Part shown: positions 2,564 to 18,547 of the stretch, piece by piece
Layout of the letters: every line of letters starts with the position of its first letter
Numbering within the stretch: position 1 is the first letter of the stretch
Virus record (IMG/VR): IMGVR_UViG_3300010331_000008
Reading direction: 5' to 3' (one strand)
Source of the DNA: a virus
DNA: 35,008 nucleotides
Notes under the pieces: model-generated
Database searches by the model: none
What the model saw: the letters and a program-made list of their open reading frames with translations, nothing else
What the model was told of the DNA's origin: nothing
Made by a program: the position numbers and the translations under genes

Positions 2564-4876
2564 ATGGTTCAACTAATAACTAAAACTGGCGCTGGAGCTA
2601 ACTTTCCTGTAGATGGGGAAGTATATGGAAGCTCCTATCCAGATGGGTTGCCTGCTAATGCCCTTGCTGTTGGTGCTGGTTCAGGAGCTATAGTATCCGA
2701 TAATATCATGCGAGTTGAATTACTGGCATCTAGTGTACCTAGCCAATTTAACGAGTTACATCATATTATAATGTGCTTCGATACTACATCTATACCTATC
2801 GGTTCGACTATTACGAACGCCGCTGTAAGTCTTTACTGTGAGTCAAAAGTTAATGGTATGAGTGATATAGCTGCATATTTGGTTAGTGTCACACCATCAT
2901 CTTTTGATAATCTTATCAGCTCCGACTATCCTAAAGTGAATAGTCTTAATGGATCAGTTTATTTCGCATCATATAATTATATCAATGTGGGTACTTATCA
3001 TACATCAAATCTACCGAGTAAAGACTTTTATAGGATAAATACCGGCGGAACTACATCATTTGGCTTAAAAGTGGCGTTCCCTCAATGGGTATCTGGAGCT
3101 AGATCAGGTTTTAGTTTTTATACAGCCGATCAAGGCGCATCTTACGCCCCAACCCTCACAGTCAACTATACGCCACCAGCTACAGTCGCGAGTTTCACTT
3201 CTACGCCAAACTCGCTAAACGCTGGCCAATCGGTTACTTTTGCTGACACTTCAACTAATGTTCCAACATCATGGCTATGGGATTTTGGCGATGGCACGAC
3301 CTCAACGCTTAAAAATCCGACACACGCTTACGCAACTGTTGGCCAATTTACTGTATCTCTAACCGCTACTAATGAGGGTGGTAACAACACAGTTACAAAA
3401 ACAAATCTCATTACAACAACGCTCGAGTCGCATACACTCATATTTTCAGACCTGTCCAGCGGAGCTGACACCCTAATATTAGACTTCCAATCGCAAACAG
3501 GTATATTCTCTGACGAAGCAAACGGTGGTTCTCCGACAGGCGGTGGCGACACACTATACATTTCAACGACCTTCCAATCACTACCTCAAAAAGAATATGA
3601 GTATCGAGTCTTTGATGAAGCTGGTAATTACATAAGTACGTGGCAAGATGTCAAATCAGACTTTAGTTACTCACAACGAGTCAATGAGAATGCCACTGAG
3701 TTAAATGTAATGATTGGCCGTGCGCCAGATAACCGTATTGCTAAACTTGAAGCCTTAAAAGATAAGAACGGTAATGATATTCTTGATAGTAGTTCAACTA
3801 TTATTTATGTATCAACTGAAACAGAAAACTCTGTCGGTGAGGGTACTGATATTAGAGAAAATCTAAACGTCGAAGTCTATTGTTTTTATGGCGGATACGA
3901 AGCCTTAAAAGATAAAAACGGTAACGATATTTTAGACAATCTATCAAATGTCATCTTAACTGGATACGGTAATCCAAACGGTAAACGAGTTTACACAGGT
4001 TATATTGCTGATTATGATTTGACTTATGGTGATGTTACTGGTGTAGATGTAGTTATTGCTCCGTTTGCAACTGAAATGAGCCATTACATTTTCAAGTCCG
4101 GTACGGCTACGACTGTAAATTATGGGTTAACCGACCCTATTGTGATGGCACGTAATGCAATGGATAACTATATCGCTCAAGGTGGTGTAATAACCTACAC
4201 AGCCGAGTCAATGCCGTTATCTGGTGAACAAGCCCCTTACGAGTTCAACCTGCAAACAACTAGAGCCTCAATTGATAAGACAGTTGACCTGTTACCTAGT
4301 GGTTATTATCACTATGTTCACCCTGGCGAAAATGTTCAATACGAACTACAAAAAGCTGTTACGGCTCATCATACATTCTATTATGAGAAACATATCACTC
4401 AATTAAAGCTTAAGAAGTCAATCACACAACTAATTAACAAGGTCTATTTTGTTGGTGGCGAAACTACCCCAGGCGTAAGTTTGTTTAAGTATTACGAAGA
4501 TACTGCGAGTGTAAGTTCACTAAGACCTGGCTTAGAAATACTATCAGATAGTCGTGTCATTGTAGATACATCAGCTTCCATTCTTAGTAATAGAAAAATA
4601 GCCGAGTTCAAAACGGCTCGCTGGCGAACATCTGTCGTTATTACTGATGCCGTTTATGATATTGAAACCATAAAACTAGGGCAGATGGTGGACTTTAAGA
4701 ACTTCGGCACGTTCGCAGATACGTTAGTTTTACAGATTGTTGGGATTGATCGTAAAAAACATAGCGTCAATCTTGACCTCGATATGGTAATCCCAGGTGA
4801 AGCTAAACGGCTAGAGGACTTGAAACGAGCTATATTGTCAGAGCAAATTGCTAACGTCGGTACAACCCCAACTTAA
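2564..4876 (+). CDS. tail tip / Tal-like structural protein with an internal PKD domain
   Basis: Text-book PKD signature (FTSTPNSLNAGQSVTFADTSTNVPTSWLWDFGDGTTSTLKNPTHAYATVGQFTVSLTATNEGG). 770 aa. Positioned after the Dit-like gene. The motif EALKDKNGNDILD occurs twice. Confidence 0.6.
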   Translation: MVQLITKTGAGANFPVDGEVYGSSYPDGLPANALAVGAGSGAIVSDNIMRVELLASSVPSQFNELHHIIMCFDTTSIPIGSTITNAAVSLYCESKVNGMSDIAAYLVSVTPSSFDNLISSDYPKVNSLNGSVYFASYNYINVGTYHTSNLPSKDFYRINTGGTTSFGLKVAFPQWVSGARSGFSFYTADQGASYAPTLTVNYTPPATVASFTSTPNSLNAGQSVTFADTSTNVPTSWLWDFGDGTTSTLKNPTHAYATVGQFTVSLTATNEGGNNTVTKTNLITTTLESHTLIFSDLSSGADTLILDFQSQTGIFSDEANGGSPTGGGDTLYISTTFQSLPQKEYEYRVFDEAGNYISTWQDVKSDFSYSQRVNENATELNVMIGRAPDNRIAKLEALKDKNGNDILDSSSTIIYVSTETENSVGEGTDIRENLNVEVYCFYGGYEALKDKNGNDILDNLSNVILTGYGNPNGKRVYTGYIADYDLTYGDVTGVDVVIAPFATEMSHYIFKSGTATTVNYGLTDPIVMARNAMDNYIAQGGVITYTAESMPLSGEQAPYEFNLQTTRASIDKTVDLLPSGYYHYVHPGENVQYELQKAVTAHHTFYYEKHITQLKLKKSITQLINKVYFVGGETTPGVSLFKYYEDTASVSSLRPGLEILSDSRVIVDTSASILSNRKIAEFKTARWRTSVVITDAVYDIETIKLGQMVDFKNFGTFADTLVLQIVGIDRKKHSVNLDLDMVIPGEAKRLEDLKRAILSEQIANVGTTPT
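3749..3787 (+). repeat. copy 1 of an imperfect 39-bp direct repeat inside the Tal-like gene
   Basis: gaagccttaaaagataagaacggtaatgatattcttgat; the second copy lies 150 bp downstream at 3899-3937. Confidence 0.8.
3899..3937 (+). repeat. copy 2 of the 39-bp direct repeat
   Basis: gaagccttaaaagataaaaacggtaacgatattttagac; both copies encode EALKDKNGNDILD in frame. Confidence 0.8.
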
Positions 4877-4883: not shown

Positions 4884-4895
4884 GTGATACCCTAA
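4884..4895 (+). promoter_or_regulatory. late promoter-like motif L1 (GTGATACCCTAA)
   Basis: One of six near-identical intergenic copies, T-rich upstream, located before the tail-fibre gene. Confidence 0.55.
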
Positions 4896-4954: not shown

Positions 4955-5488
4955 ATAGCAGTAATTAACACATATCCAGATGACACAGTAACAATCGGAA
5001 CCGACAAGCTTTTAACTGTTAATACAGATGGTGCTACGGTTATTACCCCTGTTGATACCTTGAAAGCTTATTTACTTTCTGCTGGTGGAGTAACTAATAC
5101 AGCCCTAGCAGGTGGGATAACTGGCGATAAACTCACTAGTTATAAAGTTCAAAGGCAAAACGACACGACTAATACCACACTTACTGGAGCTAGGATAGAG
5201 ACTGGCTGGGGATGGATACTAGGCACTGGCGGGGTATCTTATGCCGGAGAGAATATCTCATTCTCTACACCTTTTACTGTTGCGCCAATAGTTATCTGTA
5301 GCAATGTTGGCTCTCGTCTTACTACTAACCCGACTCTTATAAGTGACCTTACTAGTCCAGCCGATATGATAATTGAAACGAGTGCTGTCGCCACTGGCGG
5401 ATTCCGCTTAGATATGGAAACTCGTGCAGCTAATAACACTGATGTAAATAAACGATATGGCTACTCATGGATAGCAATTGGTGCTTAA
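4955..5488 (+). CDS. tail fibre / receptor-binding protein with an H-type-lectin-like C-terminal domain; probable non-AUG (ATA) start
   Basis: The frame is open from 4913. A strong AAGAGGA SD sits at 4941-4947, 7 nt before ATA 4955. The upstream extension translates to IAVINTYPDDTVTIGTDKLLTVNTDGATVITPVDTLKAYL, typical of fibre N-termini. The C-terminus (FSTPFTVAPIVICS...ATGGFRLDM...YSWIAIG) resembles H-type lectin. The track start (TTG 5060) has no SD. Confidence 0.5.
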   Translation: MAVINTYPDDTVTIGTDKLLTVNTDGATVITPVDTLKAYLLSAGGVTNTALAGGITGDKLTSYKVQRQNDTTNTTLTGARIETGWGWILGTGGVSYAGENISFSTPFTVAPIVICSNVGSRLTTNPTLISDLTSPADMIIETSAVATGGFRLDMETRAANNTDVNKRYGYSWIAIGA

Positions 5489-6478: not shown

Positions 6479-7339
6479 ATGGCTTGGAAACAATTGAGAG
6501 ATGCAAACTGGCGAGTACCTTATGTCGGTGGCTGGTGTCTTAAATACGTGCAAGACGCTTTCGGAACAGACCACCCAGACCCAGATGCTACTAATGCCTG
6601 GAATGATAATTACGGAAATGGCAATCACTACGACCTGCCACCAGTCGGTAAGACTGTACCAGTTTACTTCTCGCTTGGTAACGTACCACAAGGTCACGTG
6701 GCTATCTCATTAGATGATGGTATGGTAGCATCTTCAACTCAAGGTGGCTCTCACCCACAAGGTTATCTACACCCTAACCTTAATGACTTAATCGCTATTT
6801 ATGGAAGATATAACGGTGGTTGTCATTACTTAGGCTGGAGTGAGTTTGTTGGAACAGTCCGAGTAGTAGAGAACGCTACGCCAATGGTTACCACAGCCCA
6901 AGTAAATGAACTTTATCAGACAATCTTAGAGAGGTCACCTGATGTTGCTGGTCTAACTCACTTCGTCGGTCATTATACGTATGACTTTGTTAAAGCTGAC
7001 CTACTAGCCTCTGGCGAACGCAAAACACTACTTTCCAATAAAGCTGCTGCAATCTTAGCCAAACTAACCGCTGATAAAGAGGCTGCTAGACTAGCCGAAG
7101 TCACAAGATTAGCTGAGATAACACGCCTCCAAGAGATTGCCAGACTTGCTGAAGTAGCTAGATTAAAAGCTATAGCTGATGCCAAAGCCATTCAAGACGC
7201 TAAAGACGCTGAGACGGCTCGTATTGCAGCCGAGAAGGCTAAAGCCGATGCTATCGTAGAAGATAACACTCAATTCACTTCGTGGTTGAAAAACCTATTT
7301 ATTATAATCGGTAAGTTTCTTACCAGTTGGAGAAAATAG
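6479..7339 (+). CDS. endolysin: CHAP / NlpC-P60-like cysteine peptidase, a DUF4214-like segment, a coiled-coil repeat and a hydrophobic C-terminus
   Basis: Candidate catalytic Cys (GGWCLKYVQDAFG) and His (QGHVAISLDDG). VNELYQTILERSPDVAGLTHFV resembles DUF4214. Five RLAE(V/I)(T/A) hexads. C-terminal LKNLFIIIGKFLTSW. Lies in the lysis cassette next to the holins. Confidence 0.65.
   Translation: MAWKQLRDANWRVPYVGGWCLKYVQDAFGTDHPDPDATNAWNDNYGNGNHYDLPPVGKTVPVYFSLGNVPQGHVAISLDDGMVASSTQGGSHPQGYLHPNLNDLIAIYGRYNGGCHYLGWSEFVGTVRVVENATPMVTTAQVNELYQTILERSPDVAGLTHFVGHYTYDFVKADLLASGERKTLLSNKAAAILAKLTADKEAARLAEVTRLAEITRLQEIARLAEVARLKAIADAKAIQDAKDAETARIAAEKAKADAIVEDNTQFTSWLKNLFIIIGKFLTSWRK
7088..7177 (+). 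repeat. five tandem 18-bp units, coding, inside the endolysin gene
   Basis: The units encode RLAEVT RLAEIT RLQEIA RLAEVA RLKAIA, in frame. Confidence 0.75.
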
Positions 7340-7340
7340 A

Positions 7341-7475
7341 ATGGTCTATAAGATTTCAATGGTCATTTTTCTAATATCAATCGGTGCAAGTCTAGTCTTT
7401 TCACTACCTTACACAGCATTAATCGCTGGTATCTCGGCTTTTGTCGCTGGTATCGCATTAGTAGTAGGAGCATAA
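7341..7475 (+). CDS. 44-aa double-TM membrane protein (holin/antiholin-like); not in the supplied ORF track
   Basis: GGAG SD 8 nt upstream of ATG 7341. Translation: MVYKISMVIFLISIGASLVFSLPYTALIAGISAFVAGIALVVGA. Fills the gap between the endolysin and the holin. Confidence 0.5.
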   Translation: MVYKISMVIFLISIGASLVFSLPYTALIAGISAFVAGIALVVGA

Positions 7476-7476
7476 T

Positions 7477-7707
7477 ATGTTCACAAAAACATTTTTAATC
7501 GATGCTTTGGAACGTGCAATCAAGACCTTTGCACAGACAATAGTAGCTTTAGTATTAGTCGTAGCCCCAACTATGGGTGAAGAGTTACTAGAGGTTAATT
7601 GGATACCTGTATTAGGAGTAGCTTTTATAGCTGCTGTTATATCAATTTTGACAAGTATTGCTTCATCACTTACTGGAAATAAAAACTCAGCATCGTTGAT
7701 TAAGTAA
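7477..7707 (+). CDS. putative holin
   Basis: AGGAG SD. 76 aa with two TM segments. The N-terminal motif ALERAIKTFAQTIVALV is common in Gram-positive phage holins. Adjacent to the endolysin. Confidence 0.55.
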   Translation: MFTKTFLIDALERAIKTFAQTIVALVLVVAPTMGEELLEVNWIPVLGVAFIAAVISILTSIASSLTGNKNSASLIK

Positions 7708-7910
7708 TGGAACGTATCGGTCAAACCCTCCTAGAGGAAATCGCCTTACTGCCAGAAAAAGACCACCAATACGTTAATATGACTGGGGTATTAGGTATGA
7801 TTGCTACCGAGATGGTCGCTAGAGATGCCCACAATGACTGTTATATTTGTAAGAAAAAAGCTGACGAATATCAGGCTTATTTAGACGGTGGTGAAGACCC
7901 CAGAGACTAA
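7707..7910 (+). CDS. hypothetical protein
   Basis: Start overlaps the holin stop (TAATG). 67 aa. Confidence 0.5.
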   Translation: MERIGQTLLEEIALLPEKDHQYVNMTGVLGMIATEMVARDAHNDCYICKKKADEYQAYLDGGEDPRD

Positions 7911-7911
7911 T

Positions 7912-8160
7912 ATGGAACGAGAACTTCAAAGTCTACCCTTTACCGAACTTGTCGCTTTGAAACTTACCGGCACTCCTGAACAAGCCCATCACGTTGAAAT
8001 GGAAACACGTAGTCGCTATGCAGATTTTAGAGACTACCTAGACCGTTACGACAATCTAACCCCAGACCAAAAATGTGTCGCAGGGAGTTGTCTAAGCTAT
8101 CGCATGGCACTTGGGGCTGTTAATCACGTAGTAACTAACCCATCGGATATTAGGTTCTGA
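7912..8160 (+). CDS. hypothetical protein
   Basis: ATG at 7912 lies directly after the previous stop; preferred over the overlapping track start at 7888. Confidence 0.5.
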   Translation: MERELQSLPFTELVALKLTGTPEQAHHVEMETRSRYADFRDYLDRYDNLTPDQKCVAGSCLSYRMALGAVNHVVTNPSDIRF

Positions 8161-8163
8161 CTT

Positions 8164-8613
8164 ATGTCGGATATGAGTTACCCCGTCAATGAGTACGGAG
8201 TAGCTCTGTCCAGTTACGAATTGGGCTATAGTGAACCAACTGACCCAGAACGTCAAACAAACATAAATCATCTACAATGGATTGAGAGAATATACAGAGT
8301 CGTCGGCAAGGGCGCTCTTTTTATATGTTTTAGAGACCTCAAATGCTTACAAGAACCAATGTACATGGATGAACACCAAAGCCTACACGATACATTCTCC
8401 CAACCTAAAATGCCAACCCCAGCCCAAGCCTATGAAGAAATTGAGCGAGCGCAACTAAATGGCGAGTGTTTCTCTAGGCGTATGTCAAGAAAAAAACGTG
8501 AACAGATGGGATACGTTGCTATCGGTGGTTATGCCCAGATACCTATAACAGATGAAAGGCTGTTGGCCTGTAAAAAAGACTGTGATTTTATAATAAATAG
8601 TAGATGGAATTAG
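8164..8613 (+). CDS. hypothetical protein
   Basis: 149-aa ORF, tightly packed with its neighbours. Confidence 0.5.
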   Translation: MSDMSYPVNEYGVALSSYELGYSEPTDPERQTNINHLQWIERIYRVVGKGALFICFRDLKCLQEPMYMDEHQSLHDTFSQPKMPTPAQAYEEIERAQLNGECFSRRMSRKKREQMGYVAIGGYAQIPITDERLLACKKDCDFIINSRWN

Positions 8614-8621
8614 GAGTTGAA

Positions 8622-8825
8622 ATGACACGATCAAACATGGAAATAAGTTATACTGAGATAAGCCCAGAAGTTTTAGTTAATCGGAATAACGAACTAATCA
8701 CTTTACTTGAAATACCTTGCCATAAAGAACGAGCCGATAGACTTAAACGTGAACTAGCCGAAGTCTCATTTGAAATTATGCAGAGAGTGCGTGCAGGTGA
8801 GCTTGATATTGAGATGACAGACTAG
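8622..8825 (+). CDS. hypothetical protein
   Basis: TAGGAG SD 5 nt before ATG 8622; preferred over the track start at 8604. Confidence 0.5.
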   Translation: MTRSNMEISYTEISPEVLVNRNNELITLLEIPCHKERADRLKRELAEVSFEIMQRVRAGELDIEMTD

Positions 8826-8952
8826 TATAATAGATGTACGCCCTGAAGCTGTAATGCTCTAGGTAATCGGTATCTGACCTGCAGAGATGGTATCGGCAAG
8901 ACTGAGGACAAAGAGGAGTAATTACCTTACAAAAACTCAGGTATAACAATAC

Positions 8953-8987
8953 AAATAAATAAGCCCCATTACGAGGCTTATTTATTT
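8953..8987. terminator. bidirectional intrinsic terminator
   Basis: Perfect 13-bp stem aaataaataagcc / ggcttatttattt with a 9-nt loop. A/T tracts on both sides. Lies between the convergent genes ending at 8825 (+) and 9007 (-). Confidence 0.7.
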
Positions 8988-9006
8988 ACTTGGTATAACT
9001 AGTCTA

Positions 9007-9273
9007 CTATTTGATTATCACGCCACCTGTGAGCTTGTGTGAGGTCGTGGGTGCTATAAACGGTACTAGGTGCAACGCTCCGTCAATCACAAAGACCTGT
9101 TTATGAATATTAGGTTTGCTATATCTAGCTTGGATTCGTTTTAATGAATCGGCTGATAATCTATCAAGTTCTATTTTACGGTTACGTTTCGCTATTACGC
9201 CTAGGTTTAATATCGGACTGAGTGAACGCCCAACATTGTTTATGCGTCGGTCTATATCTGATAGTTGTGTCAT
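9007..9273 (-). CDS. hypothetical 88-aa protein; the only minus-strand gene in the genome
   Basis: AAGAGG SD just upstream of the ATG on the minus strand. Has its own promoter-like sequence and a downstream terminator. I recognised no family. Confidence 0.55.
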   Translation of the reverse strand: MTQLSDIDRRINNVGRSLSPILNLGVIAKRNRKIELDRLSADSLKRIQARYSKPNIHKQVFVIDGALHLVPFIAPTTSHKLTGGVIIK

Positions 9274-9310
9274 ATAACCTCTTTTCTTATTTCTTTTGTT
9301 ATTTTTAGGT

Positions 9311-9340
9311 ACTATAAGCGACCCCTCTTTTTTTGTGTAA
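9311..9340 (-). promoter_or_regulatory. candidate promoter of the minus-strand gene (TTACAC-N18-TATAGT)
   Basis: Reverse complement reads TTACACaaaaaaagaggggtcgctTATAGT, about 40 nt upstream of the start at 9273. Confidence 0.35.
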
Positions 9341-9550
9341 CCGGCTAGTAGAGGAGTAGATAATAAAGCAATACCTGATATTAGGATTACTAGGTAGTCA
9401 GTTTTAATCTTGATCGTCAGTTCGCTGTGCTTTAAGCCTTAAAAGGATATTAAAAAATAGTTTACTAATTAAATTGATTAAATCAGATGTTAAAGTACGT
9501 GATTGTTTACATTCATCAGTTCAATGCAAGCTTTACGATAGCCTAAAACG

Positions 9551-9580
9551 TTGAGCCATTTTAGTAAGTTATTTTATAGT
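9551..9580 (+). promoter_or_regulatory. candidate sigma70-like promoter (TTGAGC-N18-TATAGT)
   Basis: Lies in ORF-free DNA, about 100 nt upstream of the + strand terminator at 9678-9700. Confidence 0.4.
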
Positions 9581-9587
9581 ATCACTT

Positions 9588-9700
9588 ACAGGCAATGGTC
9601 AGCGACTCCTCAATACTATTGCGAATATTGTTCATATGAGTTACTATAGATAGTAATTCGATAAAACTACATTGATTGAGGCCCGAAAGGGTCTTTTTCT
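9588..9700 (+). ncRNA. candidate small RNA of about 113 nt
   Basis: Bounded by the promoter-like element at 9551-9580 and the GAAA-tetraloop terminator. Contains only 5- and 14-codon ORFs with no SD. Confidence 0.35.
9678..9700 (+). terminator. intrinsic terminator (GAGGCCC-GAAA-GGGTCTT followed by a T run)
   Basis: 7-bp stem including G-U pairs, GNRA tetraloop, T5 tract. Same architecture as the post-capsid terminator at 30696. Confidence 0.6.
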
Positions 9701-9831
9701 CTGCTTGTTTATATTCCCAACCTGTTTGTTAATTTCTTTCGATAAAACTAACATTCAGTTACTGACAACTATATACCTATATTGATACGCACGTAAAGTA
9801 CAAAGCATAATTACGTTGTGTATAACTTGCG

Positions 9832-9875
9832 AACAAATAAAAGTAGCCCCTAAACAGTAATGTAATTGGGGCTAC
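9832..9875 (-). terminator. minus-strand intrinsic terminator
   Basis: Perfect 8-bp GC-rich stem GTAGCCCC / GGGGCTAC with a 17-nt loop. On the minus strand it is followed by TTTTATTTGTT. Confidence 0.6.
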
Positions 9876-9991
9876 ACACACTAAGGTGGTTATGTAAGGT
9901 GCTTACAGGCGTGTCCTAAATATCTCTACATCGGGTGTTTCTGTACTAATATTATGGTAATACTTATGGTTGGGTTTTACAAGACAATAAA

Positions 9992-10059
9992 ATAGAACTT
10001 AGCAGACAGTAGATTGGATTAACGATCGCCCTGGGGCAAGAGTTACTGCTAAGTTCTAT
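9992..10059. repeat. perfect 14-bp inverted repeat with a 40-nt spacer
   Basis: atagaacttagcag (9992-10005) pairs with ctgctaagttctat (10046-10059). Followed by (tctatata)x2 on the + strand and by TTTTATTG on the minus strand. Confidence 0.85.
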
Positions 10060-10067
10060 ATATCTAT

Positions 10068-10096
10068 ATATTACCATTTTGAGCCTATAAAATCAA
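10068..10096 (-). promoter_or_regulatory. minus-strand sigma70-type promoter with an extended -10 (TTGATT-N17-TGgTAATAT)
   Basis: Reverse complement of 10061-10100 reads gtgaTTGATTttataggctcaaaaTGgTAATATatagata. Back-to-back with early promoter A. Confidence 0.5.
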
Positions 10097-10109
10097 TCAC
10101 ATAAAAGGC

Positions 10110-10138
10110 TTGCAATATATCAACCATTAGCGTACAAT
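10110..10138 (+). promoter_or_regulatory. early promoter A (TTGCAA-N17-TACAAT with a CATTAGCG spacer block)
   Basis: Exact 17-nt spacing. Shares ccattagcgTACAAT with copies B, C and D. 35 nt upstream of the Rad52-like gene. Confidence 0.65.
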
Positions 10139-10173
10139 TATACCCAGTAGAACAGTAATGAAAGGATTAACAA

Positions 10174-10908
10174 ATGGCACAAGTAAAAGAAATAGCAGAA
10201 CAGTTATCAGAACCGTTTGATCCACAGGATATTGAATGGCGAGTTCAACAGGCTGGTGAAGCCAATGGTAAAAAATGGGCTATGGTTTTAGCCTATATAG
10301 ATAATCGAGCAATCATGGGTAGACTAGATAAAGTATTTGGTATTGCCGGTTGGCAGAACGAATATCAACCGTTACCTGATGGCGGAATAATTTGTGGCAT
10401 TAAAGCTAAAATAGGTGATGAATGGATTGTTAAATATGATGGCGCTGATAAGACTAATATTGAGGCTACTAAAGGTGGGCTTAGCAACGCTATGAAACGT
10501 GCTGGAGCGCAATGGGGTATTGGCCGTTATCTATACGGACTTGAGGCAACATTCGTTAAGCCACAAGACGGCAAAGCACCAGACCACGATAATTACATAT
10601 CTGGCTATAGTAAAGACTTTGGCAAATATTATTTTGAACGCCCACAACTACCTAGCTGGGCATTGCCAAAAGGCGCTAAGGTAGAAGTTACTAAGACCGA
10701 GACTAACCCTGAATGGTCTTATGACGAACGAGACAAGCAATTAAAAGAAATAACAGCCGTCGGTATCCAACTAGGTTACGACATAGCAACACTTGATAAA
10801 AGAATAGCTAAACTAAATAATAGCAATGATGCTAAATCACTATTAACTAACTTTCGTGAGATGATGAAAGCTGAAAAATCTAAAAAAGAGGAAGTACCAT
10901 TCAAATGA
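10174..10908 (+). CDS. Rad52/Rad22-family single-strand annealing protein
   Basis: DIEWRVQQAG...WAMVLAYIDNRAIMGRLDKVFGIAGWQNEY...KGGLSNAMKRAGAQWGIGRYLY matches the conserved core of phage Rad52-like recombinases. Confidence 0.7.
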   Translation: MAQVKEIAEQLSEPFDPQDIEWRVQQAGEANGKKWAMVLAYIDNRAIMGRLDKVFGIAGWQNEYQPLPDGGIICGIKAKIGDEWIVKYDGADKTNIEATKGGLSNAMKRAGAQWGIGRYLYGLEATFVKPQDGKAPDHDNYISGYSKDFGKYYFERPQLPSWALPKGAKVEVTKTETNPEWSYDERDKQLKEITAVGIQLGYDIATLDKRIAKLNNSNDAKSLLTNFREMMKAEKSKKEEVPFK

Positions 10909-11120
10909 ACGACCATCACGACCAAGATTACAACCCAGAGTTAGCACGAGACCTAGCCGAGATGACGCAACCCGACTACCCAGAGCTAAAGATATATAAA
11001 GGTGGCGATATACCACCAGAACTTATCTACATAAATAGTAAGGCTTATTATATTGCTCACGTTACAGACGATGTAGACGGCCAAAGAACTGCTATTTTAG
11101 TAGTATGGTCGCCTTTCTAA
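10905..11120 (+). CDS. hypothetical protein
   Basis: ATGA overlap with the upstream gene. 71 aa. Confidence 0.5.
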   Translation: MNDHHDQDYNPELARDLAEMTQPDYPELKIYKGGDIPPELIYINSKAYYIAHVTDDVDGQRTAILVVWSPF

Positions 11121-11510
11121 ATGGACTTAAAGCAGACCCCAATCGAAGTGCCGGCAACGCTTGAGGGTATTACTCGCAAAAAGGATCGTTCGGTTTCGTT
11201 CCGGTTTAACTCATTACTTGAAGTATCTAACGCCGACTTTGGCGAAATGGATAAACTATTCCAATCAGTCGGCTACCTATTATTTGCCGAACGAAGTTTA
11301 ACTAACGAAGATATACCTGATGAGGAAATAGAGACCGATATATCTAAATCGCAATCAGTCCAATTAAGAGATGCTCTATGGGTACTTTATAAGGCTCGTG
11401 GCAATCGCACCGAGGATAAAGAACTATGGAACATCTTTTATAGAAAGCAAATGCAAGTGTTCAAAGCTAGAGTGCTAGATGAAGTCCACAAACTAGACGA
11501 TACTAACTAA
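11121..11510 (+). CDS. hypothetical protein
   Basis: Starts 1 nt after the previous stop. 129 aa. Confidence 0.5.
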   Translation: MDLKQTPIEVPATLEGITRKKDRSVSFRFNSLLEVSNADFGEMDKLFQSVGYLLFAERSLTNEDIPDEEIETDISKSQSVQLRDALWVLYKARGNRTEDKELWNIFYRKQMQVFKARVLDEVHKLDDTN

Positions 11511-11530
11511 TAGGAGATAAAATAAACAAG

Positions 11531-12715
11531 ATGAATGTATTAAGTTTGTTCGATGGGATGAGTTGTGGTCAAATTGCACTCAGGCAATTAAATATACCGA
11601 TTGAAAAATACTATGCTAGTGAGATAGACAAATATTCTATTCAAATCACACAGAAAAACCACCCTAGCACTATTCAATTAGGTGATATTACAAAGTGGCG
11701 TGAATGGGATATTGACTGGTTAAGTATAGATTTAGTTTTTGGTGGTAGTCCTTGTCAGGGCTTTAGTTTTGCCGGTAAACAGTTAGCCTTTGATGACCCA
11801 CGATCTAAATTATTCTTTGATTTCATTGATATAGTAAATCATGTTAAGCAGCACAACCATAAAGCAAAGTTTCTATTAGAAAATGTAAGAATGAAAAAAG
11901 AATACCTTGATGTTATATCTGAGTACATCGGAGTTCAACCAGTTAAGATTAACTCAGCTCTTGTGTCAGCTCAGAATAGGGTTAGGTATTACTGGACAAA
12001 CATAGCCGAATTGCAACAGCCTGATGACTTAGGTATTTTACTAAAAGACATTATTGAAAGTGGGGATATAACCGAAACAAAGGCTAGAACTATTGACGCT
12101 AACTATTTTAAGGGTGGCAAGATTGGCGGCACTCATCAAAGTTCAAAACGCAACTATCTTGTAACTGGTGGTGCTATTCGTGGACGATATAATCAAGACG
12201 GCAAGACAGAACAGCAACTTGAGGTACAGGGGACGCAACGAGCCAACTCAATTACTACAGTTCAAAAAGATAGCCTATGTATTAAAGTAGGCGAAGCCGA
12301 TATTAAGGGACATGATAGTATTAAGCGAGTTTATAGCCCAGAGGGTAAATCCCCAACATTAACAACAATGGGCGGTGGACACAGAGAACCAAAAATAGCA
12401 GTCTATGAGGCTACTAAAAAAGGGTATGCCGAGGCTGGAGTTGGCGAGGGGTTAGACCTGACATTCCCTAACAGTAAGACTAGGCGTGGTCGTCTAATGC
12501 AATACAAATCAAATTGCTTAACATCTGCTAATTATGAATATGGGATAGTGCAACCAGATATTACTTGGCGTAAATTAACACCACTAGAGTGCGAAAGACT
12601 ACAGACAGTACCCGATGGATATACAGAGGGGGTATCAAATACCCAACGCTATCGTATGCTAGGTAATGGTTGGACAGTTGAAGTAATCAAACATATATTC
12701 AGGAATCTATTATGA
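11531..12715 (+). CDS. DNA (cytosine-5) methyltransferase
   Basis: Motif I LSLFDGMSCG, motif IV GGSPCQGFSFAG, motif VI LLENV, and C-terminal RKLTPLECERLQTVPDGYT and GNGWTV. Confidence 0.9.
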   Translation: MNVLSLFDGMSCGQIALRQLNIPIEKYYASEIDKYSIQITQKNHPSTIQLGDITKWREWDIDWLSIDLVFGGSPCQGFSFAGKQLAFDDPRSKLFFDFIDIVNHVKQHNHKAKFLLENVRMKKEYLDVISEYIGVQPVKINSALVSAQNRVRYYWTNIAELQQPDDLGILLKDIIESGDITETKARTIDANYFKGGKIGGTHQSSKRNYLVTGGAIRGRYNQDGKTEQQLEVQGTQRANSITTVQKDSLCIKVGEADIKGHDSIKRVYSPEGKSPTLTTMGGGHREPKIAVYEATKKGYAEAGVGEGLDLTFPNSKTRRGRLMQYKSNCLTSANYEYGIVQPDITWRKLTPLECERLQTVPDGYTEGVSNTQRYRMLGNGWTVEVIKHIFRNLL

Positions 12716-13212
12716 AAGAGCCTAAATGCAAAATATGTGGCGGCAAACACTACAAAACATTTTGTTCACAAGCCCCTAAAACTCCCATCAAACGTACACC
12801 AATAAAACTAAAGCCTAGTAAGCCTAGACGTAAAAAATCAGACCGAGATAAACTAAAAAAGAAGCTAGAACTGGCCGTTAAAACCTATATCAAACAGCGA
12901 GACAACTACACCTGCCAGCATTGCCATAAAAAAGTTGAAGGCTCTAACTGCCACGCCTCACATATTCTATCAGTGGGCGCACACTCTAATATGCAATTTG
13001 AACCACGTAATATGAAAGTTCTTTGTTTCCATTGTCATCGTCAATTTTGGCATGGCGATCCTGCATTATCTAGCCACTGGTACATACAGACGTTCCCAGA
13101 GAATTGGGCATATTTAATAGAGCAATCCAACACAGCATTAAAGATACCAACCTGCGAACTACAAGATAGAATTGACTATTATACCGAGCTTGTGGATAAC
13201 TCTACTATCTAA
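12712..13212 (+). CDS. NinG/Rap-like recombination endonuclease (zinc-binding, HNH-like)
   Basis: N-terminal CKICGGKH...FCS. The block YIKQRDNYTCQHCHKKVEGSNCHASHILSVGAHSNMQFEPRNMKVLCFHCH follows the lambda NinG pattern. ATGA overlap with the methyltransferase gene. Confidence 0.55.
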   Translation: MKEPKCKICGGKHYKTFCSQAPKTPIKRTPIKLKPSKPRRKKSDRDKLKKKLELAVKTYIKQRDNYTCQHCHKKVEGSNCHASHILSVGAHSNMQFEPRNMKVLCFHCHRQFWHGDPALSSHWYIQTFPENWAYLIEQSNTALKIPTCELQDRIDYYTELVDNSTI

Positions 13213-13217
13213 TGTTA

Positions 13218-13246
13218 TTGACGAAAGCATTAGCGTATGCTAAGAT
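13218..13246 (+). promoter_or_regulatory. early promoter D (TTGACG-N17-TAAGAT, containing the GCATTAGCGTA block)
   Basis: Same conserved block as promoters A-C. The alternative -10 aligned with the family would be TATGCT at 13236-13241. Confidence 0.5.
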
Positions 13247-13471
13247 GTTCACATAACCACAGTAGAACTGGGTTACCGAACCAAAAGCGATGAGATGATT
13301 AGAGCCTCACACCGTACGCTACAAGGTAAATCGCACCACATTAACAATTAAGCGTAGCTGACTGGCGAGATGGTAATAACGGCTCGAGCAGTTATAAGCT
13401 ATTACGAAGGGTGCAAGTGCCTTCCTCGTCAGCCACATACGCTTAATACAAAACAAAAAGGAGAAACAAAC

Positions 13472-13537
13472 ATGAGTATTCTAGCAATCAAACGCTACGA
13501 TCAACCAAATAAAATCAAGTTCATAACTATCAAATAG
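13472..13537 (+). CDS. 21-codon ORF with a strong SD (possible leader peptide)
   Basis: AAAGGAG 8 nt upstream of the ATG. Translation: MSILAIKRYDQPNKIKFITIK. Confidence 0.3.
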   Translation: MSILAIKRYDQPNKIKFITIK

Positions 13538-13546
13538 GAGAACTGA

Positions 13547-13678
13547 ATGTACCGATACAACAAACTATTAAAAGACAACTGGCTGCTAATATCACTAACG
13601 ATTATCGGAATAATCACATTAGTAATATGGTTTGACAATTTCATCTGGATATTAAATCAAACAAAAGGAATAAACTAA
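13547..13678 (+). CDS. 43-aa single-TM membrane protein
   Basis: TAGGAG SD 6 nt upstream of the ATG. TM segment WLLISLTIIGIITLVIW. Confidence 0.4.
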   Translation: MYRYNKLLKDNWLLISLTIIGIITLVIWFDNFIWILNQTKGIN

Positions 13679-13679
13679 A

Positions 13680-13916
13680 ATGAAAAACAACATCGTAAAA
13701 GACGCAAAAGCTCAAGTAAAAGCCAACAAGCAACCACGAACGATCAAAGTCAAAAGCTTAATCAAAGCTTTAGTTATTAGCGCAATCATACTATTAACTG
13801 CCGGTGTATTTTATAACCTCGGACAATACAATCAACGCCAAAGTACAGCCGACATTGACCAAAAGGCGATCATCCGAGTACAAGACATCAAAGCCTTAAT
13901 GACAGTAGTAAAATAA
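13680..13916 (+). CDS. 78-aa membrane-anchor protein; possibly the N-terminal part of the downstream transglycosylase
   Basis: Basic N-terminus followed by a TM helix (LIKALVISAIILLTAGVFY). Ends in GTA AAA TAA. The -1 frame is open from 13859 into the next ORF. Confidence 0.5.
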   Translation: MKNNIVKDAKAQVKANKQPRTIKVKSLIKALVISAIILLTAGVFYNLGQYNQRQSTADIDQKAIIRVQDIKALMTVVK

Positions 13917-13972
13917 CACAGATTGACTTAGCCGAGCCAATCGTAACGCCACAGGCTAACCCAAAAGACGAA

Positions 13973-14323
13973 GTGGCAGAACAAACCGTCTTTGTACCTA
14001 TCACGCCACAGAACGCAACTACGCAAGCCACAGGCGGTATAGAGGGCATAGTACGTGCAGCAGCTAACAAGTATGGTATCAGCGAGGACTATTTTGTCAG
14101 CGTAGCACGTTGCGAAAGCACCCTAAACCCTAATAGTGTGAATTATGACTATTACGAGAACGGAAACCCTAGCGGACTATTCCAACACATTAGTGGTTAC
14201 TGGTCAGCAAGAGCCGAGAAATACGGATATGCCGGTGCAAGCGTTCTTGATCCTGTGGCTAACGCAAACGTAACAGCAGCAATGTTCGCAGACGGACTAA
14301 CTAATTTATGGGAGTGCAAGTAA
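13973..14323 (+). CDS. lytic-transglycosylase-like (lysozyme-like) protein
   Basis: ARCESTLNPNSVNY...GLFQHISGYW resembles the catalytic Glu-Ser and GLxQ motifs of SLT/Rpf-type enzymes. The GTG start has no SD and the product has no signal peptide. Confidence 0.5.
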   Translation: MAEQTVFVPITPQNATTQATGGIEGIVRAAANKYGISEDYFVSVARCESTLNPNSVNYDYYENGNPSGLFQHISGYWSARAEKYGYAGASVLDPVANANVTAAMFADGLTNLWECK

Positions 14324-14577
14324 TGAAACTAGGTGTACAAATAATCAAAGAAAACTGGATGGAATCAATGGTCAGACGAGCCGAGGAAAGTCTAAGCACC
14401 CTTACTATCCGTAAACCAGTGGTAAAGCATATACCGATTGAAGTATGGACTGATATTGGCGGTCAAGGACTTATAAGTTTATCTAAATGGTTCCCCTGTG
14501 AAGTAAGAAACTCAGGTGGCAAAACATACTTAGTAACAACAATAAGTCATATAAGTATAGGATTGGAGAATAAGTAA
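14323..14577 (+). CDS. hypothetical protein
   Basis: TAATG overlap with the upstream stop; preferred over the track start at 14308. Confidence 0.45.
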   Translation: MKLGVQIIKENWMESMVRRAEESLSTLTIRKPVVKHIPIEVWTDIGGQGLISLSKWFPCEVRNSGGKTYLVTTISHISIGLENK

Positions 14578-15191
14578 TGACTATTAACGAACAAACAAAG
14601 GAGAGCAAGATGGGCAAAACTTATGAAGTCTTAAAGCCTCTAGTCAATGCCGAAGTTGGTACTAAACTAAAACATTTATCTAGCACTCCATATCAGACAG
14701 CTGGTTTATACACCGAAGACCATAAGATTATTGTATTGTGGTGTCATATTGATACGGCTATTGAGCAAGGTTTTATTATAGGAGCAGTTATGACAGAAGA
14801 TAGTAATGAGCTATCCAAAGCAATCAAAAAAGCATTTACAGATAACGATATGACCGAAGATGGTTGTAGTGATTATGAGGATATTGAGTTATTTGATACA
14901 AAGCAAGTAGTCGATGACATTATTGCCTACGTTCAATCTAACTATATTCTAAAATCAGAATCAGACAATTCCGTTGATGAAGCAGAAAAGTTTAATTACG
15001 ATTTTGGATATAAATGTGGCGTAAATGAGATAACCATGAGTGGCGATTATATTCTAAAATCAGATGTAGAGTGGATAATAATCGGTGAAGATGAACCACA
15101 GACAGAAAATGGGTTATTACCTGATCGAGTTGATAGACGTAATCAACTCCGAGCAGAACAACGTAACCGTCTAAAAGAAAGTAGTAAATAA
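14577..15191 (+). CDS. hypothetical acidic protein; an alternative start is ATG 14610, preceded by AAAGGAGAG
   Basis: 204-aa ORF, Asp/Glu-rich in its C-terminal half. Confidence 0.5.
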   Translation: MTINEQTKESKMGKTYEVLKPLVNAEVGTKLKHLSSTPYQTAGLYTEDHKIIVLWCHIDTAIEQGFIIGAVMTEDSNELSKAIKKAFTDNDMTEDGCSDYEDIELFDTKQVVDDIIAYVQSNYILKSESDNSVDEAEKFNYDFGYKCGVNEITMSGDYILKSDVEWIIIGEDEPQTENGLLPDRVDRRNQLRAEQRNRLKESSK

Positions 15192-15192
15192 T

Positions 15193-15588
15193 ATGACCAA
15201 ACCTAAGACTGTAGTAGATATACCAGAAATTAAGCGTAATCCAAAACACTACTATGCTATAAGTTGTGAGCATATATGTACTGTACTATTGGATGAATAC
15301 ATAATGAAGAAAGCAAATAAACTCCTCTTGAAATATAGAAATGAAATGAATGGGTTACTTTCTAATAATACAGAACATTTAATAGAGCAAAATTGGGCGT
15401 TAGCATATCCGAATAAAGAACAAACATCTTTTTATAGTTCTAATCCAATAAAAGAATATCAAGTCTATACACAGCCATTTACTACTAGAAAAGTTGATAA
15501 TATCTTTGAAGGAATTGGCGAATATAAAATACACGATAGAGATGTTATAGATGTGGTTAAAAAGATTATGGAAAGTGAGCAATTATGA
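15193..15588 (+). CDS. hypothetical protein
   Basis: 131-aa ORF that starts 1 nt after the previous stop. Confidence 0.5.
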   Translation: MTKPKTVVDIPEIKRNPKHYYAISCEHICTVLLDEYIMKKANKLLLKYRNEMNGLLSNNTEHLIEQNWALAYPNKEQTSFYSSNPIKEYQVYTQPFTTRKVDNIFEGIGEYKIHDRDVIDVVKKIMESEQL

Positions 15589-15620
15589 CCTTAGTTAATA
15601 CAGACGATAAGAAAGTAAGG
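15583..15620 (+). repeat. copy 1 of a 38-bp direct repeat; encodes a 15-codon upstream ORF (uORF) at 15585-15632
   Basis: ttatgaccttagttaatacagacgataagaaagtaagg. 36 of 38 positions are identical to 16323-16360. Confidence 0.85.
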
Positions 15621-15628
15621 GGTATAAA

Positions 15629-16321
15629 ATGAGTAAAGAATATATTAAGTTCAAACTAACAGACGAGTTCATAACATTTTGGGGCGGTAAGTTATTCCGC
15701 ATTGAGGCAACCGCATCATTTGGTGATGTAGAAAAAGGCGACAAGGGCGGTTATGTAGAAAAAGCAGAAAACCTATCTAATGAGGGCGATGCTTGGGTCT
15801 CTGGCAATGCTCAGGTCTATGGCAATGCTCGGGTCTCTGGCGATGCTCAGGTCTCTGGAGATGCTCAGGTCTCTGGAGATGCTCGGGTCTCTGGCAATGC
15901 TTGGGTCTATGGCAATGCTCAGGTCTATGGCAATGCTCGGGTCTCTGGCGATGCTCAGGTCTCTGGAGATGCTCAGGTCTCTGGAGATGCTCGGGTCTCT
16001 GGAGATGCTCAGGTCTCTGGAGATGCTCGGGTCTCTGGCAATGCTTGGGTCTATGGCAATGCTCAGGTCTATGGCAATGCTTGGGTCTATGGCGATGCTC
16101 GGGTCTCTGCAAAGAAAGCATTTAATAAAGGTTGGTTCATCGGCGGTGATGATACAGAAAAGATTACCAGAATTGAAGACCAAATGGGTAATGATTACTG
16201 GAAAACACAATATGTATTGGGTGACTACGAGATTAACGATATTGAACCAGCAGAAGAAAAAGCTACCCACCCTAAAGAAATTGTGATTGACGGTGCAACT
16301 TATATTCTGAAGGATAAATAA
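15629..16321 (+). CDS. hexapeptide-repeat (left-handed beta-helix-like) protein
   Basis: Eighteen consecutive G-[DN]-A-x-V-[SY] hexads flanked by non-repetitive N- and C-terminal regions. AAGGGG SD. Confidence 0.6.
   Translation: MSKEYIKFKLTDEFITFWGGKLFRIEATASFGDVEKGDKGGYVEKAENLSNEGDAWVSGNAQVYGNARVSGDAQVSGDAQVSGDARVSGNAWVYGNAQVYGNARVSGDAQVSGDAQVSGDARVSGDAQVSGDARVSGNAWVYGNAQVYGNAWVYGDARVSAKKAFNKGWFIGGDDTEKITRIEDQMGNDYWKTQYVLGDYEINDIEPAEEKATHPKEIVIDGATYILKDK
15785..16108 (+). repeat. 18 x 18-bp tandem coding repeat
   Basis: Units such as ggcaatgctcaggtctat and ggcgatgctcaggtctct. Units 2-6 recur as units 8-12, a 108-bp higher-order repeat. Confidence 0.9.
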
Positions 16322-16322
16322 G

Positions 16323-16360
16323 TTATGACCTTAGTCAATACAGACGATAAGAAAGAAAGG
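16323..16360 (+). repeat. copy 2 of the 38-bp direct repeat; encodes a 15-codon uORF at 16325-16372
   Basis: ttatgaccttagtcaatacagacgataagaaagaaagg. Confidence 0.85.
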
Positions 16361-16371
16361 AATATGAAGTA

Positions 16372-16668
16372 ATGAGCAAATCAACAGTTATATATGAACG
16401 AGTATGGTATTTGCCGACATCACTTGTCGCAAAAGATGGAAGCGTTACGTTGATAGGGCATATATTCAAGATAAAAAGAACCGACACAGGCAACATCCTT
16501 TTAGATAACAAAACCAATGCGTGGGATTTTCCTAACGATGGTGAGATGGTAAGTTTCATCAGAAAGAATAAGGCGTGTGCGTTGCCCTACGAAGCTGAGG
16601 GAAACCCAAGGTTCATTCCCACCAGAATACGAAACATGGTTAAAAAGTTTAAGGTAGAGGATAAGTGA
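16372..16668 (+). CDS. hypothetical protein
   Basis: 98-aa ORF whose ATG overlaps the uORF stop (TAATG). Confidence 0.5.
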   Translation: MSKSTVIYERVWYLPTSLVAKDGSVTLIGHIFKIKRTDTGNILLDNKTNAWDFPNDGEMVSFIRKNKACALPYEAEGNPRFIPTRIRNMVKKFKVEDK

Positions 16669-16678
16669 GGTAGTGATA

Positions 16679-17056
16679 ATGAGTGATGACGATATTCTAA
16701 ATAAAGGTGGGACACAAGACGATGTTGATGAATATGCACGACAAAATGGTGCAGAACTAACTAAAGAAGATTTTATCACCCCTGTTATGACAGACGATAT
16801 AGATAAACGTTTAGATAAGATACTAAAAACATTTGCTATCACTATAAATGGCGACAGTAAGACAGGTTTCACATTAGACACATCAGACGCCAAGCAAGCT
16901 ATTTTACTAGCTCATCAAAAAGAAGTAGAGCGGATAATCGGGGAAAATGTAGAATTATCTGGCAAAAACGATATAGCAATCAACTTGCAGATTACTATAG
17001 AAAACAGTTTACGAACCGAACAACTTCTACGAGCTAATATAAAAGAAGATCGATAG
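16679..17056 (+). CDS. hypothetical protein
   Basis: ATG at 16679 lies 6 nt into the track ORF, which uses GTG 16673. GAGG upstream. Confidence 0.5.
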   Translation: MSDDDILNKGGTQDDVDEYARQNGAELTKEDFITPVMTDDIDKRLDKILKTFAITINGDSKTGFTLDTSDAKQAILLAHQKEVERIIGENVELSGKNDIAINLQITIENSLRTEQLLRANIKEDR

Positions 17057-17058
17057 GC

Positions 17059-17087
17059 TTGCATATACTCAAGCATTAGCGTACAAT
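17059..17087 (+). promoter_or_regulatory. early promoter B (TTGCAT-N17-TACAAT)
   Basis: ggcTTGCATatactcaagcattagcgTACAAT. The downstream leader (agaaaggattacaaaaATG) resembles that of promoter A. Confidence 0.65.
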
Positions 17088-17120
17088 CTTACTTAGTAAT
17101 AAGTAGAAAGGATTACAAAA

Positions 17121-17360
17121 ATGAGTAGCACAATACAGGTTTATACAAACGACGTAGTTATAGAGGAAGTAACAGGTCAACGCTTATTCGGAACAGTTGA
17201 CGATGTACAAGTAACTATTAAAGACGTAGACGCTTCCGACATCGTACCTGAGTTTATAGTTAGTGAACTATTAGACGCAATCGACTTTGCCGACATCGAG
17301 AAGTATTACCTTGCTCGCAAAGGTGATAGTGATGACGAAGATTTCAGTGGGGCTGAGTAA
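17121..17360 (+). CDS. small, highly acidic protein
   Basis: 79 aa and Asp/Glu-rich (ends GDSDDEDFSGAE). First gene after promoter B. Confidence 0.5.
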   Translation: MSSTIQVYTNDVVIEEVTGQRLFGTVDDVQVTIKDVDASDIVPEFIVSELLDAIDFADIEKYYLARKGDSDDEDFSGAE

Positions 17361-17942: not shown

Positions 17943-17944
17943 GT

Positions 17945-18460: not shown

Positions 18461-18461
18461 C

Positions 18462-18490: not shown

Positions 18491-18547
18491 GTGACTTAGA
18501 TATGAAACGAATATAAAATAATAATCATATCGAAAGCGAGTTATAAA

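Follow-up and report, generated by a model that had tools for sequence, protein, structure and literature searches.

What is a short repeat, present in one orientation only and lodged in the gaps between late genes, doing in the genome of an uncultured phage? The question is raised by the IMG/VR record IMGVR_UViG_3300010331_000008, a stretch of 35,008 nucleotides (hereafter the window, meaning the whole stretch that was analysed), in which a previous reading, made from the sequence alone, had found six copies of the repeat TGATACCCTAA and proposed that they are late promoters working without a -35 hexamer. The repeat is real and highly non-random. Comparison with related phages gives good support to a promoter reading: TGATACCCTAA probably forms the central part of an extended -10 late promoter that needs no -35, with the clade consensus T-R-T-G-n-T-A-C-C-C-T. 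Late promoters of the -35-independent extended -10 type are already known; what appears special here is the invariant CCC of the hexamer together with a clade-wide leaderless twist.

Copies of the repeat and their conservation among relatives

Exact searching recovered TGATACCCTAA six times, always on the + strand and always in an intergenic gap flanked by + strand open reading frames (ORFs). Results are collected in Table 1. The number of copies expected by chance is close to zero (0 in 100 dinucleotide-preserving shuffles of the window). The initial claim of six intergenic copies on the + strand was confirmed. Five of the six copies carry an extra G on their 5' side, and for this reason the start points 4884, 22433, 28523, 33082 and 34799 given by the sequence-only reading are correct as well. 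The + strand carries the bare hexamer TACCCT 11 times and the - strand carries it 9 times; 6 of the + strand occurrences are intergenic and none of those on the - strand is, in a genome of which only 9.8% is intergenic. No exact copy of TGATACCCTAA lies in the early region (10174-19225), as had been stated, and a seventh, intergenic copy with one mismatch, TGATAACCTAA, stands at the early/late border, at 19226. Positions 34886-35008 are identical to positions 1-123 (123 nt), which means that the contig is a closed circle; its unique length is 34,885 bp.

Table 1. Candidate promoters, associated genes and signals, with positions on the window. Homologous sites are given as contig, with position in brackets where available. 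SD, Shine-Dalgarno sequence.
Feature	Position	Strand	Context	Start codon and leader	Homologous sites
Copy 1, ttTG TGA TACCCT AA	4885-4895	+	after 770-aa fibre-like gene (2564-4876), before lectin-like gene and lysis cassette	leader ~60 nt, SD AAGAGGA	L067 (20738), L070 (20810), L072 (21020)
r1t-type holin	7477-7707		downstream of copy 1, as is the remaining lysis cassette		
Early promoters	10110-10138, 13218-13246, 17059-17087, 18462-18490, 19366-19394	+	-35/-10 class, TTGCAa-N17-TACAAT with CATTAGCG spacer		
C5 methylase gene	11531-12715		precomputed Pfam match		
Degenerate copy, TGATAACCTAA	19226-19236	+	directly after stop of CAP-domain gene	ATG 8 nt past hexamer opens 37-codon ORF (19243-19356)	
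140-aa orphan ORF, candidate late regulator	19474-19896	+	last early-type gene before first putative TACCCT promoter; early-type promoter at 19366		L068, L070, L072 (same position)
Copy 2, putative first late promoter	20199-20209	+	upstream of clade-conserved 58-aa ORF (20235-20411), first gene past this site, and terS (20415-20933, identified by GP3_package match)	leader with SD AGGAG	L068 (1031), L069 (776), L070 (4777), L072 (3185)
Copy 3	22434-22444	+	between terL (21024-22418) and portal/MuF fusion (22451-24478)	portal ATG 22451, 8 nt past hexamer, no SD	L042, L067-L072
Copy 4	28524-28534	+	upstream of S78 prohead protease (28613-29446) and HK97-type major capsid (29447-30673)	leader ~75 nt, SD GAGGA	L070 (9184)
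Intrinsic terminator and canonical extended -10 TGCTATAAT (30721-30729)	30688-30729	+	after capsid gene; hairpin -18.9 kcal/mol, U-run		
Copy 5	33083-33093	+	upstream of 43-aa ORF (33100-33231), then tail-tube gene (33231-34214; product homologous to Phage_tube_2 proteins)	ATG 33100, 8 nt past hexamer, no SD	
Copy 6	34800-34810	+	upstream of tape-measure gene (493 aa, 34823 across the circular junction to 1419; product homologous to tape-measure proteins)	ATG 34823, 14 nt past hexamer, no SD	L042, L066, L067, L068, L070, L072

Two statements of the sequence-only reading had to be narrowed. That the repeat marks every late unit is overstated: canonical extended -10 sites, TGCTATAAT at 30721 and TGATATATT at 20942, the latter preceding terL, also serve late genes. 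The list of downstream genes was essentially right, except that the copy at 4885, thought to lie upstream of the fibre gene, sits downstream of the fibre-like gene.

We then looked for the motif in related phages, as had been suggested. The clade consists of uncultured siphophages with capsids 56-66% identical, and eight contigs were examined (L042, L066, L067, L068, L069, L070, L071 and L072). TACCCT is kept at homologous junctions in these eight relatives, each of which has 3-7 intergenic copies on the + strand, mostly as TGnTACCCT. Over the nine clade genomes, TGnTACCCT occurs 37 times on the + strand versus ~1.9 expected, and 6 times on the - strand versus ~3.1 expected. The shared junctions are those before the small ORF and terS, between terL and portal, before the protease, after the capsid terminator, before the small ORF and the tube gene, before the tape-measure gene, and after the fibre gene. 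Sequences flanking the motif have diverged among relatives. The bases that directly follow TACCCT are uniform within each phage and different between phages (AAA in the window, CCGCCG in L042, ACCnnnGAA in L070, GACCnnGAA in L067, L068, L071 and L072). Of the repeat as originally defined, TACCCT is thus the clade-wide core, whereas the final AA is specific to the phage of the window.

The junction that follows the capsid gene is particularly informative. A hairpin with a U-run was found there in all 8 phages examined at this place (-15 to -20 kcal/mol, z = -2.6 to -6.3), directly followed by TACCCT in seven relatives and by the canonical TGCTATAAT in the window; between this terminator and the start codon, nothing else is conserved. 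Since genes placed past a terminator need a new promoter, the order terminator then motif supports the promoter reading. Furthermore, in L045, a phage with a related terL and another capsid type, the canonical TGATATAAT occupies both the terL-portal and the pre-capsid junctions, and the + strand of L045 has six TGnTATAAT and no TACCCT there. The TACCCT element thus appears to be interchangeable with the canonical TGnTATAAT at the same junction.

Promoter-like grammar and leaderless geometry

Sites were aligned for seven phages (35 sites). T is present at -17 in 25 of them, a purine at -16 in all 35, T at -15 in 31 and G at -14 in 30; position -13 is free (A in 21, G in 9, T in 5), and TACCCT follows. 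What had been noticed ahead of the copies as a "T-rich stretch" is more exactly an ordered element, T(-17) R(-16) T(-15) G(-14). T-12, A-11 and T-7 of the -10 hexamer are present, as TACCCT or as TAACCT (at 19226, and in L043 and L044). L067 departs from this scheme, TG being shifted or absent at 5 of its 6 sites. Farther upstream, no position from -57 to -28 exceeds 0.37 bit, which bears out the earlier statement that no -35 is conserved; upstream, information peaks only at -27, where T is favoured (0.71 bit), and this position does not belong to the -35 hexamer. Downstream, A is found at positions 8-9 past the hexamer in 26-28 of the 35 sites, as expected around a start point. That variation is limited to the base which the extended -10 rule leaves free is hard to explain except by a promoter.

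An unbiased analysis of hexamer enrichment was also made for five genomes, over the 40 nt that precede each called start. TACCCT ranks there among the SD variants, with 17 of its 50 occurrences in these regions (7.2-fold, p = 7e-10), and it is the sole other strongly enriched word that is not A-rich.

By analogy with known extended -10 promoters, the element would be read by a sigma-70-family holoenzyme, sigma region 3.0 contacting TRTG and region 2 contacting T-12, A-11 and T-7, and transcription would start at a purine some 7-9 nt downstream of the hexamer. The copies would re-initiate transcription at intervals along the single-strand late array, ahead of packaging, portal, protease/capsid, tube, tape-measure and distal tail/lysis genes. 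In M. tuberculosis, T-17 G-16 T-15 G-14 stabilises open complexes of RNA polymerase (RNAP) (PMC6212719), and the TRTG extension may likewise compensate for a GC core that resists melting.

A feature that the sequence-only reading missed concerns the start codons. Of 44 sites, 32 are followed by an ATG, 5-15 nt past the last T of the hexamer and most often at 8-10 nt, which begins an ORF of 35 codons or more, with no SD-like sequence in between. In the window, this geometry is found at the portal gene (22451), the 43-codon ORF (33100) and the 37-codon ORF (19243), and sites 4885, 20199 and 28524 have leaders with good SDs. Twelve sites in all are 20-90 nt from the start, and a normal SD is then present. 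Tape-measure N-termini align from the Met in question (M-N/D-x-K-T-L-x-I), and in each relative the ATGs that follow the capsid terminator or precede the tube gene begin ORFs at matching places, which shows that these SD-less ATGs are real starts. The order motif, small ORF, tube gene is kept in 8 of 8 relatives, with small ORFs of 45-53 codons there, compared with 43 in the window.

Leaderless transcripts are abundant in M. tuberculosis (PMC3898074), and a -10 element placed 6-7 bp from the ORF gives leaderless mRNA in Deinococcus-Thermus (PMC12340547). A start codon 8-10 nt downstream of the hexamer and deprived of SD would similarly give a leaderless or near-leaderless mRNA here, with an ordinary SD-containing leader elsewhere; judging from these distances, about two thirds of the transcripts of the element may be leaderless or nearly so. 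Taken together, the conservation of TRTG-n-TACCCT, its presence at homologous junctions, its placement after terminators and the SD-less starts 8-10 nt away strongly support the extended -10 interpretation.

If correct, this provides a sequence rule for annotating an uncultured clade, one that would mark both the late units and the true, often leaderless, starts. Gene callers already miss or misplace such starts, as exemplified by the 37- and 43-codon ORFs and by the gene starting near 4955. The two small ORFs (19243-19356 and 33100-33231) escaped a 50-aa ORF cut-off. The third case is the lectin-like gene (~4955-5488), whose true start is near 4955 according to N-terminal homology with L067 and L070, and not at the listed TTG (5060). 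Its homology to these two phages (MAIITSYP...) reaches upstream to an ATA codon at 4955, itself preceded by the SD AAGAGGA; a non-ATG start and an ATG>ATA difference are the two ways of reading this codon.

We also noted that ACCCTAA within the copy at 28524 (28528-28534) is repeated exactly in inverted form as TTAGGGT (28573-28579), 38 nt farther downstream, within the leader of the protease gene. The pairing is probably due to chance, because transcription starting after the motif would leave only the second arm in the RNA.

What may read the element

The early region has promoters of its own, five on the + strand, of the form TTGCAT-N17-TACAAT with a shared spacer, CATTAGCG. Each precedes early genes that have normal leaders and SDs. 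These promoters are canonical -35/-10 ones, which implies that the host holoenzyme reads ordinary -35/-10 promoters in this phage; the TACCCT sites form a separate class restricted to the late block, and the difference between the two classes means that they could be separated in time. A near-identical spacer, GCCATTAGCT, is found in early promoters of L045 (~2460-2490 and ~4035-4065), a phage of another capsid lineage, and an early regulator common to both phages may use the early-promoter spacer as its operator.

A factor that would read the late class was searched for among 40 early, lysis-region and late-boundary ORFs with Pfam and PHROGs. In these 40 ORFs, neither collection gave a sigma factor, a sigma region 2 or 4, a gp55, an ArpU, RinA or Alt protein, a gp39-, gp76- or AsiA-like protein, or an RNAP, in agreement with the previous statement that no sigma-like gene is recognisable. 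Matches were to an Erf/Rad52-type annealing protein, a NinG/HNH-like nuclease, a beta-solenoid protein, an SLT-like transglycosylase, a CAP-domain protein and an r1t holin. Rfam and tRNA scans of the window were empty. Small orphan proteins could act as appropriators.

Among these orphans, synteny and co-occurrence point to the 140-aa product of ORF 19474-19896 as the best candidate regulator. Homologues were not found in the TATAAT-type relatives L045, L061 and L064, in each of which ~9-10 kb upstream of terL is visible. The family is rare (38 representatives among 1.84 billion). The protein has no significant match in Pfam, PHROGs, the PDB sequence profile or Foldseek (PDB and BFVD), and scans of IMG/VR with the family gave no match either. 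Its predicted fold is alpha-beta3-alpha2 (pLDDT, the predicted local distance difference test score, 92), which according to the model is not sigma-like. It is nevertheless a concrete protein to test.

How far does the element itself speak for such a factor? The invariant CCC core might make the sites poor substrates for unaided host sigma-A, in which case an early phage function would be required for their use or would favour it. We regard dependence on a phage-encoded factor as a tentative proposal. The dedicated and perhaps novel recognition system put forward by the sequence-only reading is possible and not established, given that TACCCT fits TANNNT, that no sigma-like gene is seen and that the candidate fold is not sigma-like. 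Provided that the element is a promoter, host sigma-A, with a phage early protein that assists or re-tunes it, is quite conceivable as its reader, and host sigma-A alone is conceivable; an unrecognised phage sigma-like protein and a host alternative sigma are, even taken jointly, rather unlikely. The most specific version, a private late code TRTGnTACCCT that would be read only when the 140-aa non-sigma factor re-tunes sigma-A at -10 to -8, with a largely leaderless late proteome, is a speculation that we hold to be unlikely.

Several points weigh against the interpretation proposed here. Promoter function is deduced from sequence and comparison only. The sites were gathered by pattern, so that the invariance of the hexamer is partly by construction, and the independent evidence consists of positional homology and flank conservation. 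No need for specific bases at -10 to -8 is known in sigma-70-type -10 recognition, and the fixed CCC is unexplained by a simple sigma-70 model. The T-7-to-ATG spacing is 1-3 nt longer than in Deinococcus, which implies either a long discriminator or mRNAs with leaders of 1-3 nt. Finally, the 140-aa protein is tied to transcription solely by its position and by co-occurrence in 4 of the 5 phages in which the region is visible. That CCC should be fixed at -10 to -8 across diverged phages is puzzling. Kinetic tuning could account for it, as could a new protein that modifies RNAP, and in both cases something would be learnt about early/late separation in phages devoid of their own polymerase or sigma.

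The explanation that fares best after ours competes only with factor dependence. It holds that host sigma-A holoenzyme alone reads TRTGnTAnnnT and that the sites, as extended -10 promoters of an ordinary kind, belong to no dedicated late system, CCC being kept for tuning of strength or open-complex kinetics, or through copy-and-paste spread of a cassette, and timing being set from elsewhere or being slight. TACCCT satisfies the TANNNT rule of actinobacterial sigma-A, and host sigma-A may thus suffice. M. tuberculosis promoters follow TANNNT with no -35 consensus and no preference for the inner NNN, and TGN raises their activity (PMC3898074), while promoters with TGTG do not need the activator RbpA and can open when conditions are poor (PMC6212719). 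That canonical TGnTATAAT stands in at homologous junctions, and that no sigma or known appropriator was found in the scanned ORFs, would also fit. Yet the same CCC is kept at ~44 sites of nine phages, despite capsid identities of only 56-66% and diverged flanks, when free inner bases should have drifted to other TAnnnT hexamers, and the separation from the early -35/-10 class is clean within one genome. On balance we find this explanation somewhat unlikely.

With extended -10 promoters of primary sigma factors, above all those of the actinobacterial TANNNT class, the element shares TG one base upstream, T-12/A-11/T-7, T-17/R-16 and a dispensable -35. Its grammar is identical to that of TGNTANNNT, the strongest promoter class of M. 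tuberculosis (PMC3898074), and also to that of the TGTG motif studied with RNAP from this species (PMC6212719). Unlike in that class, the inner bases are here fixed as CCC throughout the clade, and the element is confined to one temporal or functional block of phage genes.

A second alternative is a variant of the promoter reading, in which a host alternative sigma, or a phage sigma-like protein that we failed to recognise, has a -10 specificity that includes CCC, much as gp55 of T4 reads TATAAATA. An invariant 6-bp core with no -35, and the many early ORFs with no detectable family, would agree with it. Against it, no sigma region 2/4, gp55 or ArpU/RinA/Alt match was found in the ORFs tested, extended -10 promoters of primary sigmas have exactly this TRTG-n spacing, and TACCCT is not known to match the consensus of any alternative sigma. 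This makes it improbable. A Sigma-B/SigF promoter on the minus strand was considered, as the reverse complement contains GGGTAT, and was rejected for want of a GTTTAA partner at the right spacing and of minus-strand genes; a Sigma-I-like ACCCC/CGAA reading was ruled out by spacing.

Other late systems of phages were also compared. The best functional analogue is found in the Thermus phages P23-45 and phiYS40, which combine early -35/-10 promoters and later -35-less extended -10 promoters within one phage. Sigma region 4 is displaced by gp39 and gp76 in these phages. In P23-45, the action of gp39 silences -35/-10 promoters but not the extended -10 middle and late ones (PMC3950348), and phiYS40 middle and late mRNAs are mostly leaderless (PMC3594737). 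In contrast with these phages, no gp39/gp76-like protein was found here, TACCCT is not TATAAT-like, the host is probably Gram-positive or actinobacterial, and the scheme is read from sequence alone. T4 late promoters, TATAAATA, are read by gp55 with gp33 and the gp45 clamp. They resemble the present element in being -10-only and repeated before late genes, and differ from it in sequence; moreover, no gp55, gp33 or clamp genes were found here, and TRTG is typical of a primary sigma. Promoters of single-subunit T7-like RNAPs extend over ~20 bp through +1, unlike the conservation seen here, which is limited to ~11 bp when the copies of the phage are compared and to 6-10 bp over the whole clade, and no RNAP gene was found in the 34.9-kb genome. 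A resemblance to T7/T3-like promoters (AACCCTCACTAA) was ruled out on the same ground, no phage RNAP being present. The late activators of Gram-positive temperate phages (Alt, RinA, ArpU) are encoded just ahead of terS and usually serve one late promoter, as opposed to the six to seven copies seen here, and the gene at the corresponding position (19474-19896) matches no Pfam or PHROG family.

A signal acting at the RNA level, either an endonuclease processing site in read-through transcripts or an SD-independent translation signal 8-10 nt before AUG, is very improbable. It could account for the fixed distance to SD-less starts, and read-through is possible as all genes lie on one strand. However, in seven relatives the element comes right behind a strong intrinsic terminator, past which transcription has to be started anew; the upstream TRTG with its free n is a feature of DNA promoters; TGnTATAAT can take the place of the element; the twelve sites located 20-90 nt from a start have a normal SD; no Rfam match was obtained in the window, and UACCCU is not complementary to the anti-SD. 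The leaderless ORFs adjacent to a -10 in Deinococcus-Thermus and Actinobacteria, where TANNNT lies a few nt before an SD-less start (PMC12340547, PMC3898074, PMC4007540), give a parallel for the geometry. They differ by their spacing (6-7 nt, versus 8-10 here), the present case being in addition viral and tied to one fixed hexamer. The octamer GATACCCT (4886-4893, and in other copies) is identical in sense to part of the conserved 790-loop region of 16S rRNA; a mimic of this loop was rejected as coincidence, since position -13 varies between A, T and G among relatives.

The last alternative, an operator of the "stoperator" type bound by a phage repressor or regulator that would block elongation or modulate it, or some other DNA site (packaging, recombination), we likewise consider highly improbable. 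In mycobacteriophages, the start-associated sequences of cluster K contain an SD-like GGAG, and the stoperators of cluster A are repressor sites in temperate phages. As here, these are short asymmetric repeats of one orientation, in short gaps or just before the starts of actinophage genes, and the gene pool of the window looks actinophage-like. Unlike them, the present motif has no SD complementarity and follows a promoter grammar. Apart from one weak winged helix-turn-helix match, Pfam and PHROGs recognised no repressor, integrase or helix-turn-helix regulator, and neither the extended -10 grammar nor the fixed spacing to starts nor the position after terminators is expected of operators.

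The clade, its host and neighbouring features

The clade is uncultured and has no close cultured phage. Cultured phages gave no megablast match to a 14-kb part of the late region, the portal is only 21-26% identical to those of cultured phages, and tblastn gave no match for the capsid (E-value limit 1e-10) or for the 140-aa protein. Pattern scans of IMG/VR with TTTGTGATACCCTAA and TGATACCCTGACCG returned single, chance-level matches only. A metagenome scan with the capsid alignment found two loci only, and a genome scan with terL found only relatives at 46-49% in unrelated metagenome-assembled genomes; no host emerged from either collection. Other indications are available. The N-terminal domain of the lysin is ~40% identical to endolysins of Arthrobacter phages (27 of 31 records), the nearest named terL homologues are from Pseudarthrobacter, Rhodococcus and Dietzia, the nearest named capsid homologue is from Prescottella, and the G+C content of the clade is 40-49%. 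From these homologues, the r1t-type holin and the G+C content, our guess is that the host is a low-G+C actinobacterium.

The element may also be present outside the capsid-defined clade. L155 (IMGVR_UViG_3300005617_000340), an otherwise unrelated viral contig of 54 kb, has four TGnTACCCT on one strand within 4 kb (7037-10829), and a homologue of the window ORF 30845-31357 on the strand opposite to its motifs.

The terminase genes appear to have a history of their own. The terS-terL cassette (20415-22418) is common to phages of the L045 type (9344-11392 in L045, terL 76% identical), and so is the 90-nt spacer between the two genes (20934-21023), whose ends are conserved; other TACCCT-clade phages have different terminases (Terminase_3, Sf6-type). 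It looks as if the cassette had been swapped between two TACCCT promoters, and the conserved spacer might hold the pac site.

Three further features of the window are worth recording. An AT-rich hairpin of 18 pairs (8951-8989) separates the end of the + strand lysis/late block from the only plausible - strand gene (9007-9273), and looks like a bidirectional terminator. That gene is followed by a gene-poor stretch of 900 nt (9274-10173). Lastly, a 230-aa early protein (15629-16321) consists of YdcK-type beta-solenoid/bactofilin-like repeats (GDAQVSGDARVSGNAWVYGN...), and the underlying DNA is itself repetitive.

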